Notes under the pieces: model-generated
What the model saw: only the letters and a program-made list of their open reading frames with translations
What the model was told of the DNA's origin: nothing
The model's database searches: none
Part shown: piece after piece, positions 10,471-25,356 of the stretch
Position numbering within the stretch: position 1 is the first letter of the stretch
Layout: every line of letters begins with the position of its first letter
Assembly (NCBI GenBank): GCA_041179225.1
Contig: JBEGTV010000001.1
Span: 1-26,693 of the forward strand
Direction: 5' to 3'
Source of the DNA: Deinococcota bacterium
GTDB taxonomy: Bacteria > Deinococcota > Deinococci > Deinococcales > JAAFIG01
DNA length: 26,693 nt
Position numbers and translations under genes: made by a program

Positions 10471-10489
10471 ATGTGACGGGCATGTGACG
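10471..10489. promoter_or_regulatory. Direct repeat ATGTGACG with an 11-bp period (candidate tandem regulator site)
   Basis: ATGTGACG at 10471-10478 and 10482-10489; a second 11-bp-period pair, TGTCA, lies at 10390 and 10401. Confidence 0.4.
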
Positions 10490-10527
10490 CGGCTCGGGTA
10501 GCATTACTGCGAGGAAAAACAATTAAA

Positions 10528-10668
10528 ATGAAAAAACAAGAATACCAAATCCCGTGTCTCGAGACGTATCAATGGCAAGTATTAACAGGTGTTTCATTGC
10601 CAATTGGAACAAGTGGCTTACCAGAGAACCTTTTCAATGACTTCCTTGAATTCGAGGAACAACCATGA
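10528..10668 (+). CDS. 46-aa peptide with a YxxPxL...LTG leader-like motif (absent from the ORF track)
   Basis: MKKQEYQIPCLETYQWQVLTGVSLPIGTSGLPENLFNDFLEFEEQP*. GAGG lies upstream, the stop overlaps the lipoprotein ATG (ATGA), and a paralog lies at 22868-22999. Confidence 0.78.
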   Translation: MKKQEYQIPCLETYQWQVLTGVSLPIGTSGLPENLFNDFLEFEEQP

Positions 10669-13600
10669 AAAAAGTTATTACTCTAGCATTGTTGCCAGTG
10701 GCACTGATGGCATGTTTACAAGCCCCAAGCCCAGAAGTCAAACCAGTTTCCCCAGACCAGACATTCAAACCCACACTTTTAGGCAGTGTGACTTTGCAGA
10801 TAGATAGTAATTTGGGAATCCAAGGGTCAAAATTTATTCCAAATCGTCGGCTCTCGAGCCAAACCCTTAGCCCAGTCACCGAAAGCAATTTGGTGTTCAC
10901 TCGAGAAACACTGGTCAACATTGACCGTCCGAGCAGTGGCGACAGGTACTTGAACGCGCCGTTTAAGGTCACAAACAATAACTCGAGCAACTTGCAGAAT
11001 TTAACGCTGGTGGCGTATCACAAAAACGGCAATGTTGGCGGCAGTGCCTTTAAGGACATTCAAACCTTTGGTGGCACACTCAACCCAAATGTCAATACAC
11101 TGCTGCCAATTCACACCATGACAGGTTCTGGAACTGTTGTGGTGGACAATACCAAAGCTGACCTACAAATTTTTACTCGAGGTGAAATTGCTACACTGAC
11201 CACTGCCTCAGCCGCACCAAATGGCACGTTACTCAATCCAGGCGAAGGAATTTTGCATTATGGTTTTATTGCCCGTAAAGGCAGCAGTGGAACGTACCGC
11301 ACGATTGCAGGAACAGCTTGTGATCCAGTTGCAAACGTAGGTTGTAACGAAGGCACGATAAACCTTGCGTTGCGAGTCCCACAAACTACCGACCCAAGCG
11401 GAGTAAACGCCCCAGCTTACCGGTACAGCATGACTTTCTTGGTGTTTACCGACAGCGCTGCTCGAGTCACCGAAAGCATCGAAGAACAAGGCACAACCAA
11501 CGCGGCGACTCGAGCTACTGCCCTTGGAGGTTCACCGCAAGTCGTGGCAATGTGCGGCACGAGCCGAAGTTCAAGCAACACCACGTACATCACAGGGGTT
11601 CGTACTGTTGGGGTTGGGGTCAACACCGAAACAGCTTTGATGGGTGGGAAATTTGTACTCACCAGTACCACAACGCCGAATTTCACGGTTAATGGCAATA
11701 TCTCTAAGAATTTTAATACTGCCAGTGGCTTACTCAGCACAGGACTTTCGGCGTTGGGTGGCGCAACCCTGACAACTGCTCTTGTGGGAACACCAACCAA
11801 CTCGAGTAACATAACGGTCAATACAGATGGAAGTCTAAGCATTAACCCAGCCGCGAATTTACGCACCACCGATAGTTTTAATTATTCGATTGCTGATGGA
11901 ACATGCACTTGGACACGTCCGGCTGGTGTAACCATCCAAAACGCCGTGACTTGGTTTGTCAAAAACAATGTGGCAACCACAGGCGATGGGCGCTTCTCGA
12001 GTCCATTCAAAACACTGGTTGAGGCACAAACGGCTTCGCTTGCCAATGACACAATTTATGTGTACAACGGCGATAACAGCACCACAGGGCAGAATGCTGG
12101 AATTACCTTAAAGGCGGGTCAAAAACTGATTGGGCAAGGTGTGGCGCTAACCGTTGGTGGGGATGCCATTGAAGTAGCTGGAACAAACGCCAAAGTGGGC
12201 AATGGGGCTGGAACGGCTATAATGTTAAGCACCAATAACACCTTGAATGGACTTGATGTCAACACTACAGGAATTGGGATTAGCGGCTCGAGTTTTGGAA
12301 CGCTGACAGTCAGTGCTGTGAATGTGAATGTCAGTAACAATACTGCTCTGAATTTAGCAACGGGTACGCTGGCTGCGACCTTTGGTACAATCACTTCTGC
12401 CAATGGGGTAAATGGCGTATCGTTTGATGGTTGTGATGGTACAATCACAGCCACTAATGGCACTTTAAGCTCAAGCAGTGGTCCAGCTAATCATGTTGTC
12501 AACATCGTCAATACCAGTGGAACGAACAGCCTCAACTTTACTTATGGCGGTACAATCAACAAAACCACGGATGGCGCGGCTGTGAATATCCTTGGCTTAA
12601 GTGGTACAGGAGCAGCAACCTTCAATGGTAACGTGACTGGCAATAATGTTTCCGATGGAGTAATGATCAATACCACTTCGCGTCCTGTCACCTTTAGTAC
12701 CCTTTACCTTGGTACAAGCGCGGCACGCTTTACAACGACTCCCGTTGCCCTTGTTGGGAATACTGGTGCAGTTGACCTTGGTGTGTTCACCAGCTATACC
12801 AACGCTGTTCCAGCACTGGAGATCAATTACAGCATTGCCAGCCCGGGGTTGGTCACAACAGATGCGGGTAGTTTATTAGATGCCACTGGTGCAGCTACTG
12901 CATTACTTGTTTCGCATTCAACCAGCCAGTCTTTGAACTTGAATTTTGCAACAATTTCAGCCACTGGTGCTGGAACTCATGGTGTCAACCTCAATCGCAG
13001 TAGTGGTAGCCTGACTGTGACAGGCTCAACCGCCTTTGGTGCAAAGACCGTGGCGGGTATTCAAATCACCAACTCGAGTCTTGCCACGAGTTTTAAGAAA
13101 GTGGATGTGAATGGTGCAGCCGATGGCGTGAAACTGAGCGCCAATACTGGCAGTTTTAGCATCACTGGCGATGGAAATTGGGTTAATGTTCATACCAACA
13201 GCGCAGGCGGAACATTCACTAATCTGACCAACAACGCTTTTGACCTGACCAGTGTTCAGAATGTTCAATTGACAGACATCACCATCAATGGAACAGGCAG
13301 CCACGGTGTGATTGGTTCGGGTGTGAGCGGCACGACCATCTTCTCGAATGTTGATATGACCAATATCGGTAACGCAGATAATGAACACGTCTTTAACTTC
13401 CAAGAGGGTGCAGTTTCTGGCGCACAAGTGAGTGGCTCGTTCGAGGTGAATAATAGCGAGATTAGTAACTTCACCGACAATGGTGTTTACCTCGAGAACT
13501 TTACTGGGACCTTAGATTTTCGCTGGACGAACAATAACCTTCGGAACAACATCACGACTACAGCCTGTGGTGGTGGAAACTGTAATGGTAACGGCATTTT

Positions 13601-14477
13601 GTTGCGGGCTGACGGCACATCGCGCATCAATGCCTTGATCTTAAACGCCGTCTTTGAGGACATTGATGGTATCGGGGTTACTGCCAACCCAGAAGGCAAT
13701 AGCGGCGCACGAATGGACATTAACATTGCTCAAAGCAATTTCACGGCTGAACCTTATGGTGGGACGGGTAACACCAACAATGGCGAAACCGCCATCAGCC
13801 TGCGGAACCAACAGGGCAACAGCATCATGAACTTTCGTTTGTTCTCCAACGATATTAATGATTATACTGGTGAACTAGCGTTGGGCGTGGTTGAGATTGA
13901 AGGCGGCGATTTCACCACCACCAATGGTATCATTGACACGCTTTACATCTATCATGCTCACGCAGGTAATGGACTCCAAATTTTTGCGGATGGCGCAAAT
14001 ACTGGTGGTAGTGGCACAACGAACTTCACCATGAATGTCTCGATGAATGACATCAATTTCCTTGCGGCAACACCCATTTTGGGCAGCTCTATTTTGCTCA
14101 GCAACAATGGGGCGATTTCCGGAAGCATAGTACAGGGCAACTACATTATAACCAATAGTAGATTATTAGCAAATGCAACTGGCACGAGTCGGCGTACACT
14201 AACAATCAATGCAAGGGATTTTAACGATGTCTGTGCGCGAGTTCAAACCAATATCATAGCAGCAGGCACATCTGGTACTCAACCATCAATCAATTTGTCT
14301 TATAACGGTTCAGGTGCAGTTCGTTTACAAGGAATGAGCGGGTCAGGAGACACGAACGCAATAGCTTATCTCGGTGCAAACAATACACTATCTGTTGCTG
14401 CCATTTCTGGTCCGAACAACAATGTAACCAGCGCGACCTGTACCACCCCAACCATCCCTGGAGTATTCCCGTTCTAA
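10665..14477 (+). CDS. 1270-aa lipoprotein: shared N-terminal domain, Ig/cadherin-like domain, right-handed beta-helix-like passenger
   Basis: Lipobox LMA|C. Residues ~1-316 align with the 22996 protein. NTDGSLSINPAANLRTTDSFNYSIADG is Ig-like. WFVKNNVATTGDGRFSSPFKTLVEAQTASLANDTIYV is a typical beta-helix start, followed by N/G/T/S-rich coils. Confidence 0.88.
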   Translation: MKKVITLALLPVALMACLQAPSPEVKPVSPDQTFKPTLLGSVTLQIDSNLGIQGSKFIPNRRLSSQTLSPVTESNLVFTRETLVNIDRPSSGDRYLNAPFKVTNNNSSNLQNLTLVAYHKNGNVGGSAFKDIQTFGGTLNPNVNTLLPIHTMTGSGTVVVDNTKADLQIFTRGEIATLTTASAAPNGTLLNPGEGILHYGFIARKGSSGTYRTIAGTACDPVANVGCNEGTINLALRVPQTTDPSGVNAPAYRYSMTFLVFTDSAARVTESIEEQGTTNAATRATALGGSPQVVAMCGTSRSSSNTTYITGVRTVGVGVNTETALMGGKFVLTSTTTPNFTVNGNISKNFNTASGLLSTGLSALGGATLTTALVGTPTNSSNITVNTDGSLSINPAANLRTTDSFNYSIADGTCTWTRPAGVTIQNAVTWFVKNNVATTGDGRFSSPFKTLVEAQTASLANDTIYVYNGDNSTTGQNAGITLKAGQKLIGQGVALTVGGDAIEVAGTNAKVGNGAGTAIMLSTNNTLNGLDVNTTGIGISGSSFGTLTVSAVNVNVSNNTALNLATGTLAATFGTITSANGVNGVSFDGCDGTITATNGTLSSSSGPANHVVNIVNTSGTNSLNFTYGGTINKTTDGAAVNILGLSGTGAATFNGNVTGNNVSDGVMINTTSRPVTFSTLYLGTSAARFTTTPVALVGNTGAVDLGVFTSYTNAVPALEINYSIASPGLVTTDAGSLLDATGAATALLVSHSTSQSLNLNFATISATGAGTHGVNLNRSSGSLTVTGSTAFGAKTVAGIQITNSSLATSFKKVDVNGAADGVKLSANTGSFSITGDGNWVNVHTNSAGGTFTNLTNNAFDLTSVQNVQLTDITINGTGSHGVIGSGVSGTTIFSNVDMTNIGNADNEHVFNFQEGAVSGAQVSGSFEVNNSEISNFTDNGVYLENFTGTLDFRWTNNNLRNNITTTACGGGNCNGNGILLRADGTSRINALILNAVFEDIDGIGVTANPEGNSGARMDINIAQSNFTAEPYGGTGNTNNGETAISLRNQQGNSIMNFRLFSNDINDYTGELALGVVEIEGGDFTTTNGIIDTLYIYHAHAGNGLQIFADGANTGGSGTTNFTMNVSMNDINFLAATPILGSSILLSNNGAISGSIVQGNYIITNSRLLANATGTSRRTLTINARDFNDVCARVQTNIIAAGTSGTQPSINLSYNGSGAVRLQGMSGSGDTNAIAYLGANNTLSVAAISGPNNNVTSATCTTPTIPGVFPF

Positions 14478-15836: not shown

Positions 15837-17324
15837 ATGTTTGGTGAATATAATCCCACGGGTTTTTTCGATGAGATGTTCGATGGTGTAAAACCTCGAG
15901 ACCATTACGCCCCGATTCTGGATCGGATGAATGCAATCACCAAATCAGAATTCGAGCGACGACGAGCAGCTTCGGATTTAACTTTTCGCAATCAAGGCAT
16001 TACCTTTACAGTGTATGGGGATTCCCAAGGTACGGAACGCACTTTTCCGTTTGATCCTGTGCCTCGGATTATTCCAGCCACTGAATGGGCGCATTTGGAA
16101 CGTGGTTTAACGCAGCGTGTGCTTGCCTTAAATGCTTTTCTGCGCGATATTTACGGCGAACAAGCCATTCTGCGTGATAATGTCATGCCAAGGGAATTGG
16201 TTTTATCTTGTAGTAATTTTCGGCGCGAGGTTTTTGGGCATAAACTGCCGCTTGGGGTTTTTACCCATATTGTTGGTTCGGATTTAGTCCGTAACGAACG
16301 CGGCGAATACCTTGTTCTCGAGGATAATTTGCGTACTCCAAGCGGGGTTTCGTATGTGCTGGCAAACCGCACTGCCCTAACTCGTACCTTGCCGGGTTTA
16401 TTTGAAGGCATGAATGTCCGCCCTGTGCAGCACTACACCACGGTGCTGCTCGAGGTGCTGCGTTCCTTGTCGCAACGCGATAACCCTGTGGTGGTGGTGC
16501 TAACACCGGGCATGTACAACTCGGCGTATTTTGAACATGCTTTTTTAGCCCAGCAAATGGGGGTGGAACTGGTTGAAGGCAGGGATTTATTTGTAGCCGA
16601 TGGCAGGGTCTGGATGCGAACCACGACTGGACGCGCTCAAGTGGATGTGATTTATCGCCGTGTGGATGATGATTTCCTTGACCCAGTGGCTTTTAGGTCA
16701 GACAGTGCGCTTGGTGTACCGGGCTTACTCGAGGTTTATAAGGCTGGTCGGGTGGCGCTGGCGAACGCAGTTGGGGCTGGAGTTGCCGATGACAAAGCGG
16801 TTTATGCTTACGTGCCGAAAATGATTGAGTATTATTTGGGTGAAAAACCGATTTTGGGTAATGTTCCGACCATGCTCGGTTGGGATAAAGCCGACTTAGA
16901 CGTGATGTTTTCTAAGCCATCTGAATTGGTCTTTAAGGCAGTCGGAGAAGCGGGTGGTTATGGAATGCTGGTCGGACCTGCCAGTACCAATGCCGAAATC
17001 AAAGACTATTTAGAAGATGTCAAAGCCAACCCCAGAAATTACATTGCCCAACCAGTTATTCCACTCTCGAGACATCCAACTTATTACCCAGACAGTGGCA
17101 AAATGGAAGCCTGTCATGTGGATTTACGTCCGTACATTCTGTGTGGCGAAAAAGTCACGATTATCCCCGGGGGTTTAACCAGAGTCGCCCTTAAACGTGG
17201 CAGTTTGGTGGTGAATTCTAGTCAGGGCGGCGGCAGCAAAGACACTTGGGTTCTCGAGGATGACGGGCAGACACAAAGTTCACAGGTTCAAAATTCACAG
17301 TCGCAAAGCCAAAGGAGCGCATAA
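15837..17324 (+). CDS. Circularly permuted type 2 ATP-grasp protein (DUF404/DUF407-type)
   Basis: [89 protein letters not shown] and a Q/S-rich tail. Confidence 0.92.
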
Positions 17325-18241
17325 TGTTATCTCGAGTTGCTGAAAATCTTTTTTGGATAGCGCGGTACATTGAACGCGCTGAGAGTTCATCGCGCTTACT
17401 AGACGTGAATTATTATGCAACTTTAGAAGGTGGCAATCTGGTGCAAGAACAGTGGTTGCCGCTCCTTAAAATCACGGGTGGCGAAAAAGCCTTTAGAGAA
17501 CAACACCCCAAAGCCGATTCTAAAAGTGTGCCATTCTGGTTGGCATTTGATTTATATAACCCGTCCAGCATTTGCAGTACCTTGACCCAAGCCCGCGAAA
17601 ACGCCCGCAGCTTACGCGACCGAATCTCGAGTGAAATGTGGGAGTGTATCAACAAGGCATACCACGAACTTTGTTTTGACACTGATTCAGTCATTGCCAA
17701 CGATGCACTGCATGAATACTGCAATCGGGTGCGCGAAACCAGTCATTTGTTTTTTGGAATTGCCTTGTCTACATTGCTGCGCGACGAAGGCTGGCAGTTC
17801 TTGCGTTTAGGACAACTGATTGAACGTGCCGATAATTTACTACGAATCCTGCAAGTGCGTTACCAAAACTCCGAAACCAGTGTGGTTGCCGATGCACTGG
17901 AAAATCACCGTTGGATGGCGCTCCTAAAAACTGTTTCGGCATACGAAGCCTACCGCAAGCGTTACCACACCAGATTAGAACCACAAAACATTGCTGAGTT
18001 TCTGCTCTTAGATTCAACTTTTCCACGCAGTGTGATTTACGCGGTCGAAGGGGTGCGTGACAGCCTTAAAAAATTACCTAATGCCAGTAAAATCCAACAC
18101 GAAACCAATTGGTTAGCGGCACGGCTCGAGCATAGCCAAGTCAGTGATATGCTCGACCAAGACGCACTCGAGAAGATACTCGAAGATGTTAATGCGATAG
18201 GGGCAATGGTACAAAGCACTTATTTTCATTTGAACAGCTAA
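17324..18241 (+). CDS. Alpha-E domain-containing protein (DUF403)
   Basis: [46 protein letters not shown] and FPRSV; 1-nt overlap with the ATP-grasp stop, which is the canonical pairing. Confidence 0.92.
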   Translation: MLSRVAENLFWIARYIERAESSSRLLDVNYYATLEGGNLVQEQWLPLLKITGGEKAFREQHPKADSKSVPFWLAFDLYNPSSICSTLTQARENARSLRDRISSEMWECINKAYHELCFDTDSVIANDALHEYCNRVRETSHLFFGIALSTLLRDEGWQFLRLGQLIERADNLLRILQVRYQNSETSVVADALENHRWMALLKTVSAYEAYRKRYHTRLEPQNIAEFLLLDSTFPRSVIYAVEGVRDSLKKLPNASKIQHETNWLAARLEHSQVSDMLDQDALEKILEDVNAIGAMVQSTYFHLNS

Positions 18242-22437: not shown

Positions 22438-22548
22438 AAGAACCTCCAAAGGATAAAAGCCTTTTTGTCTGACATCGGATTTTAACTCACTTAGTTATTT
22501 GGTGCTTGTCTTGTACAATGCGATTCTCTAACCAGCCAGCGCGTGCCA

Positions 22549-22594
22549 AACGTGACCCTACGCTTATGGGTAACGTGACCCTACGCTTATGGGT
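22549..22594. repeat. 23-bp perfect tandem duplication
   Basis: AACGTGACCCTACGCTTATGGGT at 22549-22571 and 22572-22594; contains GTAG on the minus strand. Confidence 0.88.
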
Positions 22595-22631
22595 ATGGTC
22601 GAAAATGCAAATCAATCTTAAATCAGAATTC

Positions 22632-22867: not shown

Positions 22868-22999
22868 ATGGTCATGCAAACACCGAAACTACCGTATCAA
22901 ACACCGAAACTCGAGCAGGAAAAAAGCCATACCGTACTCACAGGGGTCAGTCTGCCAATTGGTGGGATTCTTAGCGAAGATGAAGGAATAGGGCAATGA
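22868..22999 (+). CDS. 43-aa peptide with a YxxPxL...LTG leader-like motif
   Basis: MVMQTPKLPYQTPKLEQEKSHTVLTGVSLPIGGILSEDEGIGQ*. GAGGAG RBS, ATGA overlap with the lipoprotein, and a paralog at 10528-10668. Confidence 0.78.
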   Translation: MVMQTPKLPYQTPKLEQEKSHTVLTGVSLPIGGILSEDEGIGQ

Positions 23000-25356
23000 A
23001 GCGCTTTTTATCGAGTGCAATTGGTTTAGCAGCCTTACTAGCCGCCTGTCAAACACCCATGCCGAATCTCGAGCAAAAACCAATCGGAGTGGCGGGGCAA
23101 GTCGAATTAACTTTTGATTTACGCTCTAAAACCGCTTTTGCAAGGTACAAGAAAAGCGGTTTGATTACACAAACCGTGCAGACCAGTATTTCGTTTGGTG
23201 CTGCGCCAACCATTGGGTTTCTCGCCGATGGTAGCAATAATTATGTTTCTGCTACATTTGATGTCAATAACCTGACTGGCTCGAGCCTGACCGATTTAAC
23301 ACTGGTGGCTAAGCATCAGCAAGGAAATCATGTGGGAACAGCTGTGAAAAATGTGGTGAATTTCTCGGGCAATGCCCTTGACTTTAATGTCTTTGCTCAG
23401 AATGTCAAACCAACCCTGATACCAACGGTACTGACTCCGTTCACAGTCAATTCCAATGTGGCAGATTTGCAATTCCTGACTGAACTCGAGATGGCTGCAT
23501 TGCAAAGCCAAGCGGTCAGTGCTGGTCAGGTTATCACTGCCAATGGCGAATACTTACTGCCGTATGGTTTTATGGCACGAAGCAGCAACACTTCGAGAAC
23601 CTTAGCCACTGGCAACAGTGTAGGGAGTTTAACTGTTTCGATTAAATTACCCAGTGGTAACGAGCCAAGCAGCAATGTGACACGGTTTAGCATGACCTTT
23701 GTGGCATTTGACCAAGCTGTGATCCCTCGAGTTTCTGAAGCGCTTGAGGAACAAAGTAATTCGAGTGCTGCCACTCGAGCCACAAGTTTTGGTGTAGCTC
23801 GAGTGGCAGCCTTACGCAACAGTGCTTTATTGACCGAATCTGACGGTACAAAAGTCAATGTTTGCCAAGTTCGCACGGCTGGCACGGTGGTCGCACCGAC
23901 TGCTCGAATAGACACAACTGCGTTGCTCATAGGGAGTGGACTGAATGACCCGTGCTTTGCTGCGTCTGGGCGGCGCGTATTTGGTGGCAGTTCTTCGGAT
24001 AAAGTTGTGGCACGCCACATTGTGCCCGATGGTGGTTTTTTATTGGCTGGTGAGTTCGCTCAAACCCCGACCAACACCGATGCGATGGTACTCAAATACA
24101 AACCAGATGGTTCTTTGGACTCGAGTTTTGGTGTGGGCGGACTTGCCACAATGGATGCTGTCAATGATGATCTAATCACGGGTTTTCATCTTTTACCGAA
24201 CGGCAAAATGTACTTGGTTGGCTCGAGATTTCGGATTTACAAATTCAATGCCAACGGAACACCAGATACAACTTTTGGCACAAATGGTTTTGCCAGTACC
24301 GTCTTAAGCCAAAGCAGCACCGATGATTTTGTGATTACCAGTGCAGTTAATCCAAGTGATGATTCAATTGTTTTAGCTGGTGTGGTGGTACAAGCTGCGG
24401 GAAACGCCAGCGACATTGGATTGGCTGTTTTTACCAATACTGGAATTCTTAACAATAGTTACAATGGCTCTGGAAAATTGTTCTGGGAGTACCTGAGTGT
24501 AGCCTCAAATCCAGATACACCAATCGCTGTGTACTTTAATGCCGATGGGAGTCTCCTAGTTTTTGGCGATACGATTTCTTCCAATCGTGATTGGGTGGTC
24601 TTCAAATTAGACAACAACGGGCAATTGGATGCCATTAACTTTGGGAACGGTGGGTACTTGCTGATTGATGTTCTCGGAGCAGCCGATTTTTTAACAGTGG
24701 TTGATCGTTTATCAGATGGAAATTTCTTATTGGCAGGTACAGTGAGCGACCCAACTATAGCAAGTACAAATCGCTTAGCCGTGGTTAAAGTAACCGATGC
24801 TGGGCAATTGGATACCAGTTTTGCCAACCAAGGGCAATTTGTACAATCAGCAACAGGGTCAACCTACCGTGAAGCAGTAGCTCTACATGTCCTTGCCGAT
24901 AATCGTGTTTTGGTGGCAGGTACGGATGTTTCACTAACTCGAGGTGTACAGTTTGGATTACTTAAACTCAGTGAATTTGGTGCATTGGTGAGTTCTTTTG
25001 GGACAAGCGGCGTGGCAACTCCTGTTAATTTCTTTGCTGGTTCAGGTAACGACACGCCAACAGGCATTACTGTTTTAAGTGATGGTAGCATTGTCCTCGG
25101 AGGCATTGGCACAAAACCCGGTGCGTTCCCAGCACCAACCCAACCGCATATGGCACTGGCAAAATACACCTCGAGTGGTGTGCTGGACACAACTTTTAAT
25201 AGCACTGGCTTAAAAACCACCTTATTTGGCAATAATGGCTCGAATCAGACTGCCTTGCCGCCTGCGGTTTTTACAAATGATGCTTTGCTGCACGTTGGCT
25301 GGGCTGGGTTTACTGGACAATCAAATAATATCACGCTCTACAAAACCCTGCCATAA
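22996..25356 (+). CDS. 786-aa lipoprotein: shared N-terminal domain plus delta-60 (DUF5122-type) repeat beta-propeller
   Basis: Lipobox LAA|C. Residues ~1-296 align with the 10665 protein. About seven repeats follow, such as KYKPDGSLDSSFGVGG, KFNANGTPDTTFGTNG, KVTDAGQLDTSFANQG and KYTSSGVLDTTFNSTG. Confidence 0.9.
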   Translation: MKRFLSSAIGLAALLAACQTPMPNLEQKPIGVAGQVELTFDLRSKTAFARYKKSGLITQTVQTSISFGAAPTIGFLADGSNNYVSATFDVNNLTGSSLTDLTLVAKHQQGNHVGTAVKNVVNFSGNALDFNVFAQNVKPTLIPTVLTPFTVNSNVADLQFLTELEMAALQSQAVSAGQVITANGEYLLPYGFMARSSNTSRTLATGNSVGSLTVSIKLPSGNEPSSNVTRFSMTFVAFDQAVIPRVSEALEEQSNSSAATRATSFGVARVAALRNSALLTESDGTKVNVCQVRTAGTVVAPTARIDTTALLIGSGLNDPCFAASGRRVFGGSSSDKVVARHIVPDGGFLLAGEFAQTPTNTDAMVLKYKPDGSLDSSFGVGGLATMDAVNDDLITGFHLLPNGKMYLVGSRFRIYKFNANGTPDTTFGTNGFASTVLSQSSTDDFVITSAVNPSDDSIVLAGVVVQAAGNASDIGLAVFTNTGILNNSYNGSGKLFWEYLSVASNPDTPIAVYFNADGSLLVFGDTISSNRDWVVFKLDNNGQLDAINFGNGGYLLIDVLGAADFLTVVDRLSDGNFLLAGTVSDPTIASTNRLAVVKVTDAGQLDTSFANQGQFVQSATGSTYREAVALHVLADNRVLVAGTDVSLTRGVQFGLLKLSEFGALVSSFGTSGVATPVNFFAGSGNDTPTGITVLSDGSIVLGGIGTKPGAFPAPTQPHMALAKYTSSGVLDTTFNSTGLKTTLFGNNGSNQTALPPAVFTNDALLHVGWAGFTGQSNNITLYKTLP

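Follow-up and report, generated by a model that had tools for sequence, protein, structure and literature searches.

Two genes on one stretch of Deinococcota DNA encode proteins that start alike and end differently, which raises the question of what their common N-terminal domain does and how it came to carry such different C-terminal parts. The stretch, hereafter the window, comprises 26,693 nt (positions 1 to 26,693 of contig JBEGTV010000001.1, assembly GCA_041179225.1) and stems from a metagenome-assembled genome (MAG) of 2.68 Mb that is 57% complete. Both genes lie on the + strand, at 10665-14477 (P0001, 1270 aa) and 22996-25356 (P0002, 786 aa). An original prediction, made from the window alone, had described the shared domain and proposed that it is an anchoring, export or polymerisation module for variable extracellular payloads. 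Our analyses showed that the domain is common to a family of predicted lipoproteins, labelled so far in Deinococcota only, in which it is combined with 33 classes of C-terminal passengers. We consider it slightly better than an even bet, with a probability of roughly 0.55, that the domain is the constant, membrane-proximal module of these lipoproteins, holding the protein in the outer envelope and presenting its passenger, and that the family expanded as the 5' unit was duplicated and the 3' part exchanged.

Two predicted lipoproteins with a common N-terminal region

BLASTP aligned P0001 and P0002 in a single collinear stretch from residue 1 to about residues 316 and 296, respectively (E 5e-26, 29% identity, 47% positives), and all pairs of motif blocks listed in the original prediction are contained in this alignment. 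Similarity indeed stops after a VRTxG motif. In P0002, VRTAG occupies residues 292-296, with the last nucleotide at 23883 as quoted earlier; in P0001, VRTVG occupies residues 311-315 and ends at nucleotide 11609, one residue before the residue 316 and nucleotide 11612 that had been given. Downstream of VRTxG, BLASTP found only chance-level segments between the two tails (E ≥ 0.24).

Absent from the earlier description were the lipoprotein signal peptides with which both proteins begin. In P0001 the signal covers residues 1-17 (10665..10715, +), with the lipobox L-M-A-C at residues 14-17 and Cys17; in P0002 it covers residues 1-18 (22996..23049, +), with L-A-A-C at residues 15-18, Cys18 and a weak LPAM_1 match. 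The region common to P0001 and P0002 hence consists of signal, tether and domain together. A Pro/Ser/Val-rich tether follows in P0001 (residues 18-35; 10716..10769, +), and the profile envelope of the domain begins at residue 36. The first domain copy, a predicted beta-sandwich of about 280 aa, extends over residues 36-324 (10770..11636, +), on the evidence of BLASTP and profile, with an AlphaFold2 (AF2) model in addition; the second extends over residues 30-304 of P0002 (23083..23907, +), on the evidence of BLASTP and profile. Predicted from sequence, the lipobox cysteine before the domain is the covalent anchor, from which a short tether leads to the domain as the first folded unit.

The passengers are of the two kinds first proposed for them, Ig-like plus beta-helix-like sequence and delta-60 repeats, as Pfam and NCBIfam scans and the annotations of homologues bear out. 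Passenger 1 (11637..14477, +) opens with an Ig-like segment at residues 364-425 (nt 11754-11939), a weak Cadherin_5/Big_9 match slightly below the cut-off, and continues with a long beta-strand repeat of beta-helix type; homologues of this repeat region match PF13229 Beta_helix or bear the name right-handed parallel beta-helix protein. Passenger 2 (residues 335-786; 23998..25356, +) is of the beta-propeller type and consists of seven delta-60 repeats (TIGR02608, 7 stretches, E 1e-55; DUF5122). Neither passenger has sequence relatives in the PDB. Several homologues are named trimeric autotransporter adhesin by JGI. We rejected this assignment for P0001, in which Pfam finds no C-terminal YadA-type anchor, head or stalk and whose lipobox lies at the N-terminus; the name seems to have been attached automatically to a protein with beta-strand repeats. 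The passenger of P0001, which falls in tail cluster 1, ends in C-T-T-P-T-I-P-G-V-F-P-F. A conserved C-terminus of the type G-T-C-x-x-P-x-F, with an aromatic last residue, was seen in beta-helix-type passengers (window 14440-14477; P0007, P0014, P0021-P0023, P0175).

A Deinococcota family with many passengers

Like the original prediction, we could not place the domain in a named family. Residues 1-330 of P0001 and P0002 gave nothing over the curated cut-offs of Pfam-A 2025 and NCBIfam 20.0. Scanned singly against both libraries, 25 aligned domain sequences produced only scattered one-off matches (E 0.003-0.23), and the domain profile found no match at E ≤ 10 among PDB sequences. Two findings would count against the original proposal, a known family for the domain and a fixed C-terminal architecture; we looked for both and found neither.

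At least nine loci with the domain are present in the MAG of the window. Among these paralogues, one carries FG-GAP repeats, one a delta-60-type tail and one a PMP-like beta-helix; a further one has two tandem domain copies, and in another the domain stands after three Ig-like repeats. One paralogue (C351, 381-1049 and 136-372, - strand) is split by a frameshift into two frames without a clean start, which marks it as a pseudogene or else reflects an error of the assembly.

A profile of the paralogues was searched exhaustively against 1.84 billion cluster representatives and retrieved 679 proteins at E ≤ 1e-3, 561 at E ≤ 1e-10 and 169 at E ≤ 1e-30. Family representatives are 217-1592 aa long; the domain nearly always starts at residue 28-60, and its profile envelope ends at residues 296-331 in nearly all members. 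We analyzed starts and tails in 173 members, 162 of them with an intact start, and a lipobox of the pattern [LVI][ASTVIM][GAS]C is present in 150 of these 162. About 12% of the members (21/173) consist of the domain only, with no tail, and some hold two tandem copies.

All taxonomically labelled members are Deinococcota. A scan of one genome per prokaryote species found 21 loci, all 21 in Deinococcota (Deinococcales MAGs, Meiothermus, Calidithermus, Thermaceae). The 24 plasmid records with the domain are all from Deinococcus, and named cluster members are Deinococcota as well. Sampling 301 Deinococcota genomes, we detected the domain in 85, a sample in which non-detection does not equal absence. 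It was found in 9 of 10 sampled genomes of the window's own family, with at least eight scored copies and 26-36 first-look candidates each, in 48 of 100 from the genus that includes D. actinosclerus, and in 0 of 31 from the genus that is probably Thermus. The gene cassettes often stand in tandem pairs within a few kb (G193:C49, G193:C39; G256:C1 near 4.72 Mb), which suggests local duplication as the source of family expansion.

That the C-terminal payloads vary, as the original prediction had it, was confirmed by a catalog of homologue architectures: 149 tails of at least 80 aa after the domain fall into 33 classes that are unconnected by BLAST. The beta-helix type is represented by 35 tails, FG-GAP by 25, delta-60 by 20 and EEP nuclease/phosphatase with LTD or Big_2 by 18, followed by one unassigned class (10), TIG plus CarboxypepD_reg (7) and leishmanolysin (3). 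One or two examples each were found of GSDH, Metallophos, P-domain, CAP, GDSL esterase with CE2_N, apiosidase-like glycosidase, NHL propeller and PKD/Big_9, and likewise of Laminin-G, RCC1 and Chlam_PMP. The Pfam-named tails are typical extracytoplasmic modules.

In a FastTree tree built from 166 domain sequences, the tail classes require no fewer than 45 changes, compared with a minimum of 32 for 33 states and about 102 after shuffling; the tree was built without a support test, and the number of swaps is indicative only. The classes are scattered over the tree, with 12 binary changes for FG-GAP, 8 for EEP and 7 for delta-60, and each is polyphyletic. Such a count between the two bounds, together with the polyphyly of the classes, fits a mainly vertical descent of the domain with repeated exchange of the passenger.

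Fold and conserved residues of the domain

The AF2 model of the domain, computed from a 25-row alignment, has a predicted local distance difference test (pLDDT) score of 78.5 and a predicted template modeling (pTM) score of 0.85. It depicts a beta-sandwich to which two helices and, at the C-terminus, an alpha/beta extension are added. Foldseek found nothing at E ≤ 1e-3 in the PDB. VIA-align against 48,161 representative chains placed VP37 of white spot syndrome virus (WSSV) at the top (Z 6.9, root mean square deviation (rmsd) 3.5, 115 aligned), followed by WSSV VP24 (Z 5.7), the lipoprotein SadB (5.2) and WSSV VP28 (5.0); a repeat fold comparison gave Z 5.4 and 5.0 for VP28-like and SadB-like sandwiches. 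Carbohydrate-binding modules (CBM) of families 2 and 3, adaptin-ear and DUF4352-type lipoprotein sandwiches follow at Z 4-5. In the tool's own controls, the typical best Z of unmatched models is 7-8. Since even the best Z of the domain lies below this level, we read the model as a beta-sandwich with generic matches and nothing more.

The invariant or near-invariant residues (F100, P113, Y164, R169; D131, Q133, E139, E159, R177, R232, E239, R248) are aromatic and charged. No His, Cys or Ser is conserved in the domain alignment; this speaks against an enzyme and in favor of a unit with a binding or structural role. For a tandem-domain member, AF2 with a 7-row alignment gave pLDDT 60.8 and pTM 0.42, an uninformative model with no confident packing of one domain on the other. 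Among the roles first proposed for the domain, export and polymerisation are unsupported by these analyses. The variable payloads stand, and anchoring is plausible in a restated form in which the lipobox cysteine provides the covalent anchor.

A divergent copy in D. radiodurans

With a Deinococcus copy of the domain, tblastn against plasmids led to the megaplasmid MP1 of D. radiodurans. Two neighboring lipoprotein genes on MP1 carry divergent domain copies: an extracellular endonuclease of the ExeM/NucH family (78759-81962) and an Ig-like domain protein (82675-85335). The domain profile matched the endonuclease at E 4.8e-10, in two collinear pieces, and the Ig-like protein at E 1.6e-14. Over the domain, the pair share 38.5% identity (E 2.5e-48). 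By BLAST, both proteins match many family members, the endonuclease with E 1.6e-10 to 6e-4, and the similarity of the endonuclease to the family is collinear over the approximately 230-280 residues that follow its signal.

By product name and replicon, the ExeM/NucH gene is very probably DR_B0067. Previous work described DR_B0067 as the only extracellular nuclease gene of the organism, located on the megaplasmid and Sec-dependent; the nuclease is reportedly bound to the hexagonal layer and released by irradiation (Li et al., PMC3554781). Its homologues in other Deinococcus species have differing sets of C-terminal domains (review, PMC6300522). The reported binding of DR_B0067 to this layer, together with the divergent domain copy that it very probably carries, gives the best available, if indirect, support for placing the domain within an envelope-anchoring base.

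A possible role in the outer envelope

We hence favor a mechanism in which the protein would be exported by Sec and then lipid-modified at the lipobox cysteine. A flexible tether of 10-25 residues would lead to the beta-sandwich of about 280 aa, and beyond it would lie the variable working part, i.e., an enzyme, a propeller, a beta-helix, Ig repeats or none. The domain would most likely bind a common envelope component and thus hold the protein in the outer layers (outer membrane, hexagonal layer) with the passenger directed outward. Duplication of the 5' unit, which comprises a small peptide open reading frame (ORF) described below, the signal and the domain, would have expanded the family, and new 3' passengers would have been joined at the boundary just after VRTxG. 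Domain-only members, tandem copies and the domain that follows three Ig-like repeats show that its position is not strictly N-terminal and that the domain has a function of its own in addition to bearing a passenger.

Several points weigh against this reading. Lipoproteins can face the periplasm, and a surface location of the window proteins and their close relatives is only presumed. The envelope partner of the domain is putative, and with generic fold matches (best Z 6.9) a binding function is not readable from the structure model. That the domain is found by itself, as a tandem pair and behind other domains agrees with a binding unit and disagrees with a simple spacer. The identification of the MP1 gene with DR_B0067 was made from product name and replicon rather than from a locus-tag table, and its domain copy is divergent. 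Lastly, an anchoring role leaves the tight coupling of the small peptide ORF unexplained.

A small ORF coupled to the lipoprotein genes

Both window genes are preceded by paralogous small ORFs, which the original prediction of the shared domain did not mention. ORF 1 (10528..10668, +; 46 aa) reads Y-x-x-P-x-L-E ... L-T-G-V-S-L-P-I-G followed by an acidic tail, and its TGA stop overlaps the ATG start of the P0001 gene in the sequence ATGA. ORF 2 (22868..22999, +; 43 aa) contains the same V-L-T-G-V-S-L-P-I-G block and overlaps the P0002 gene in the same way. Within this block, the two copies use different codons at 6 of 10 positions, synonymously in every case. In the MAG of the window, the peptide ORF precedes the paralogues in five of five resolvable cases, a sixth being truncated by a contig end. 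It is also found upstream of orthologues in other Deinococcales MAGs, in Meiothermus and in Calidithermus, and is conserved in at least four genera. Sixteen aligned copies share invariant Y, P, L, T, G and G residues (Y-x-x-P-x-L-E … T-G-x-S-L-P-I-G), followed by a variable acidic tail that often contains D-F-[LM]-[DE].

A profile of the peptide gave 37 matches in five genomes besides that of the window; a single genome from the window's genus accounts for 16 of these matches. Of 35 loci retrieved, 32 have a lipobox protein with the domain next on the same strand, in 27 cases with the exact 4-nt ATGA overlap; the three exceptions are weak matches before unrelated genes. This linkage shows that peptide ORF, signal and domain form the constant unit, whereas the passenger varies. 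Most genes of the family have the peptide ORF upstream, but some (C378, C49, L028) do not.

The coupling is unlikely to reflect a simple hairpin attenuator at the junction of peptide and lipoprotein genes. RNA structure in 32 cassettes, from -70 to +25, was not unusual (mean z -0.04 vs shuffles), and the lipoprotein genes each have their own GGAG-type Shine-Dalgarno sequence inside the region that encodes the peptide's tail. The supplements of a study of small ORFs (PMC9650054) contained no tryptic-type strings of the D. radiodurans small ORFs.

The first half of the peptide resembles a lasso-peptide leader, with Y-x-x-P-x-L and a Thr at position -2. Two Thermaceae copies reach 16.4-16.7 bits against NF033521 lasso_leader_L3, whose cut-off is 19, and Deinococcus copies have the exact Y-17/P-14/G-8/T-2 spacing. 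A lasso core would start with G, A, S or C and have Asp or Glu at positions 7-9. After T-G, the peptides continue with V, L, A or I and then S-L-P-I-G, and in the window copies no acidic residue occurs at positions 7-9. Judged from these residues, the segment after the leader-like half is not a lasso core.

In D. radiodurans (L071, MP1 77888-88400), a divergent gene adjoins the peptide-lipoprotein cassette. It encodes a fusion of NTP_transf_5 and Transglut_core3 of about 450 aa and carries the name 'lasso peptide biosynthesis B2 protein'. The same B2-like fusion gene divergently adjoins the cassette in Calidithermus chliarophilus (L023 4152-5501), and in at least five further genomes it is found no more than a few kb away from family genes; genomes with the gene beside cassettes include two Meiothermus-type and several Deinococcus. 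In the window's own family, the B2-like gene is not beside the cassettes; in one genome (G188) it stands among polysaccharide-synthesis genes. PqqD-like genes are present elsewhere in the genomes. We rejected a canonical lasso cluster beside the cassettes of the window's family, as the B2-like gene of G188 lies in the polysaccharide cluster and the PqqD gene beside a 297-aa gene. No cyclase was noticed beside the cassettes, although no search aimed at cyclases was made. PF13471 is found in 68 of 85 domain-positive and 41 of 216 domain-negative genomes, a tally that includes the unpublished genome G252 (PF13471-positive, domain-negative) and is descriptive only, as related genomes are not independent; G252 enters no other result given here. 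The literature searched held nothing specific on the domain family or on a lasso-type system in Deinococcus.

These observations define the main rival to an anchoring role. The domain might be the partner of the co-encoded peptide, such that peptide ORF, B2-like nucleotidyltransferase-transglutaminase and domain form one system to which the passenger is secondary. Once processed in the cytoplasm, the peptide or a product of it would work together with the domain, or upon it, as a ligand, maturation factor or cargo. The tight linkage to family genes, in the window's genome as elsewhere, speaks for this, and so does the fact that the peptide accompanies the domain whatever the passenger is. The six invariant residues, the synonymous changes between the window copies, the leader-like spacing and sub-threshold NF033521 matches, the B2-like gene beside cassettes in several genera and the PF13471 tally, uncorrected for kinship, point in the same direction. 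However, the domain is exported and the peptide has no signal sequence, so that the two would not share a compartment without export of the peptide as well. The would-be core and the lack of a noticed cyclase, the distant B2-like gene in the window's family and the family genes without the peptide also count against a partnership. Moreover, co-inheritance of adjacent 5' elements gives the same linkage without binding. A complex prediction of domain and peptide from both alignments (score 0.03, mark 0.32) speaks neither for nor against binding. We hold the peptide-partner role to be unlikely. The wider proposal is of a three-part system under selection, in which a leader-like peptide is encoded in tandem with the lipoprotein, a nucleotidyltransferase-B2 enzyme processes or modifies the peptide, and the N-terminal domain is its partner; this we regard as doubtful.

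Sorting, carbohydrate binding and polymerisation

Less likely than a peptide partner is a sorting signal, recognised by dedicated machinery that moves the lipoprotein to or across the outer membrane. A constant beta-sandwich on very varied secreted passengers, its near-fixed position beside the lipid anchor and its confinement, among labelled members, to one phylum would all suit such a signal. To our knowledge, the traffic of outer-membrane lipoproteins in Deinococcota is not understood. Furthermore, the activity of DR_B0067 reaches the medium (PMC3554781). Yet in the window and in the loci examined, the cassettes adjoin no conserved gene for a transporter or outer-membrane protein, domain-only and tandem-domain proteins have nothing to export, and 280 aa is large for a signal. 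About half of the sampled Deinococcus genomes and 31 of 31 presumed Thermus genomes are without the domain, yet they must sort lipoproteins. Taken together, this makes a sorting signal quite unlikely.

A carbohydrate- or cell-wall-binding module of the CBM type, which would attach to envelope polysaccharide or substrate and not to a protein layer, is very unlikely. CBM2, CBM3 and chitinase-associated sandwiches are among the fold matches at Z 4-5, and many passengers are hydrolases. However, the CBM2/CBM3 matches (rmsd 3.5-5.9, approximately 100-124 residues aligned) lie below the background best Z of 7-8, a level that unrelated sandwiches also reach; most of the conserved residues carry a charge (D, E, R), and no CBM family is matched in sequence.

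Finally, it is highly improbable that the domain polymerises into fibers or into a lattice at the surface, in which domain-only proteins might form hetero-oligomers with domain-plus-passenger proteins: many Deinococcus genomes do couple a domain-only lipoprotein (335-345 aa) translationally to a domain plus beta-helix lipoprotein, and the top fold matches at Z 5-7 include the WSSV VP28-type proteins and SadB, which are trimeric membrane-anchored proteins, but the matches are weak (TasA Z 3.2), there is no sign of donor-strand elements, and most members are single genes.

Gene neighborhoods

The window genes have housekeeping genes as neighbors, with HSP20 and TPR genes coming after the P0001 gene; we hence rejected the idea that they belong to a conserved operon. 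In Deinococcus and Calidithermus, a conserved operon runs from the peptide ORF, sometimes through a domain-only lipoprotein gene, to the gene for a domain plus beta-helix lipoprotein, two to three phage-tail-collar genes (PF07484), a binding-protein-like gene and a GNAT gene. Examples are L031 (D. actinosclerus G036:C1:1888000-1900000), L032, L072 (D. gobiensis P1) and L023 (Calidithermus chliarophilus). Its domain-only and domain plus beta-helix genes overlap by 4 nt. This operon with a beta-helix member, the class of P0001, is the older form, and its context is gone in the window.

A direct repeat TGTGACG-N4-TGTGACG with an 11-bp period (10472..10490, +) lies 38 nt before ORF 1. Only three such sites exist in the 2.68-Mb assembly, C124:2071 and C212:2174 among them, and similar repeats (GTGTGACGCTT in two to three copies, or variants of ATATAACGC) precede orthologous cassettes in other MAGs. 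The repeat may be a site for a shared regulator or a promoter element. In the long intergenic region before the second cassette, a unit of about 24 nt (aacgtgaccctacgcttatgggt) is tandemly duplicated (window 22548-22595). Between the two cassettes, at 15837-18241, lies a pair of a circularly permuted ATP-grasp (PF14403) and an Alpha-E gene, a predicted peptide- or amide-ligase system.

Comparison with known systems

How the outer envelope of Deinococcus-Thermus is built and decorated is poorly understood, and the domain family marks a whole class of its envelope lipoproteins. This class is combinatorial and includes nucleases, phosphatases, peptidases, glycosidases and binding repeats. The domain can serve as an annotation handle for hundreds of proteins now called 'hypothetical', 'VcbS' or 'beta strand repeat', and the link to an experimentally handled surface nuclease of D. 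radiodurans offers a route to what holds enzymes on the hexagonal layer. The coupled peptide ORF with its six invariant residues and the recurrent B2-like neighbor are not explained by a simple anchor and could point to new peptide-assisted lipoprotein biology. The three-part system, if true, would amount to an undescribed peptide-dependent maturation, sorting or signaling of Deinococcota surface lipoproteins, reused for dozens of passengers.

DR_B0067, if correctly identified, has the layout of the window proteins, i.e., a lipobox signal, then the domain in divergent form, then a passenger, with the same kind of small ORF upstream. Its passenger, LTD plus EEP nuclease, belongs to the tail class of 18 family representatives and differs from both window passengers. 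The domain copy is distant from those of the window (profile E 4.8e-10), and published work treats the protein as a nuclease in which the N-terminal domain is undefined.

The best fold matches, the proteins of WSSV (VP28, VP24, VP37) and Salmonella SadB, are sandwiches or barrels with an N-terminal anchor that keeps them at a membrane. Their alignments with the domain cover only approximately 115-135 of its 290 residues, at about 10% identity, and leave the C-terminal 60 residues without a match.

What recalls lasso precursors and their B2 leader peptidase in the small ORF and its surroundings are the leader-like motif Y-x-x-P-x-L ... T-x, the sub-threshold NF033521 matches and a B2-like gene that is often adjacent. 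Unlike lasso precursors, the small ORF has the wrong first core residue, no acceptor Asp/Glu at positions 7-9 and no cyclase noticed nearby; it is translationally coupled to a lipoprotein gene and occurs in up to at least 16 copies per genome.

In its overall logic, the family resembles modules that serve as a common address or anchor. The C-terminal domain (CTD) of the type IX secretion system (T9SS), the S-layer homology (SLH) domains and the Slam-dependent surface lipoproteins likewise place one beta-rich module on many unrelated extracytoplasmic passengers within one lineage, and the Slam-dependent barrel domains of Neisseria surface lipoproteins provide the analogy for a sorting signal. 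Unlike the modules of these systems, the domain described here is N-terminal, stands after a lipid anchor and measures about 280 aa, and there are proteins that hold it by itself or in tandem; its sequence is unrelated to theirs, and a cognate machinery is not known. As a kind, modular surface lipoproteins with a common module are familiar. In the libraries and literature searched, the present domain family has neither a name nor a description, and its tight coupling to a leader-like peptide ORF is unusual.

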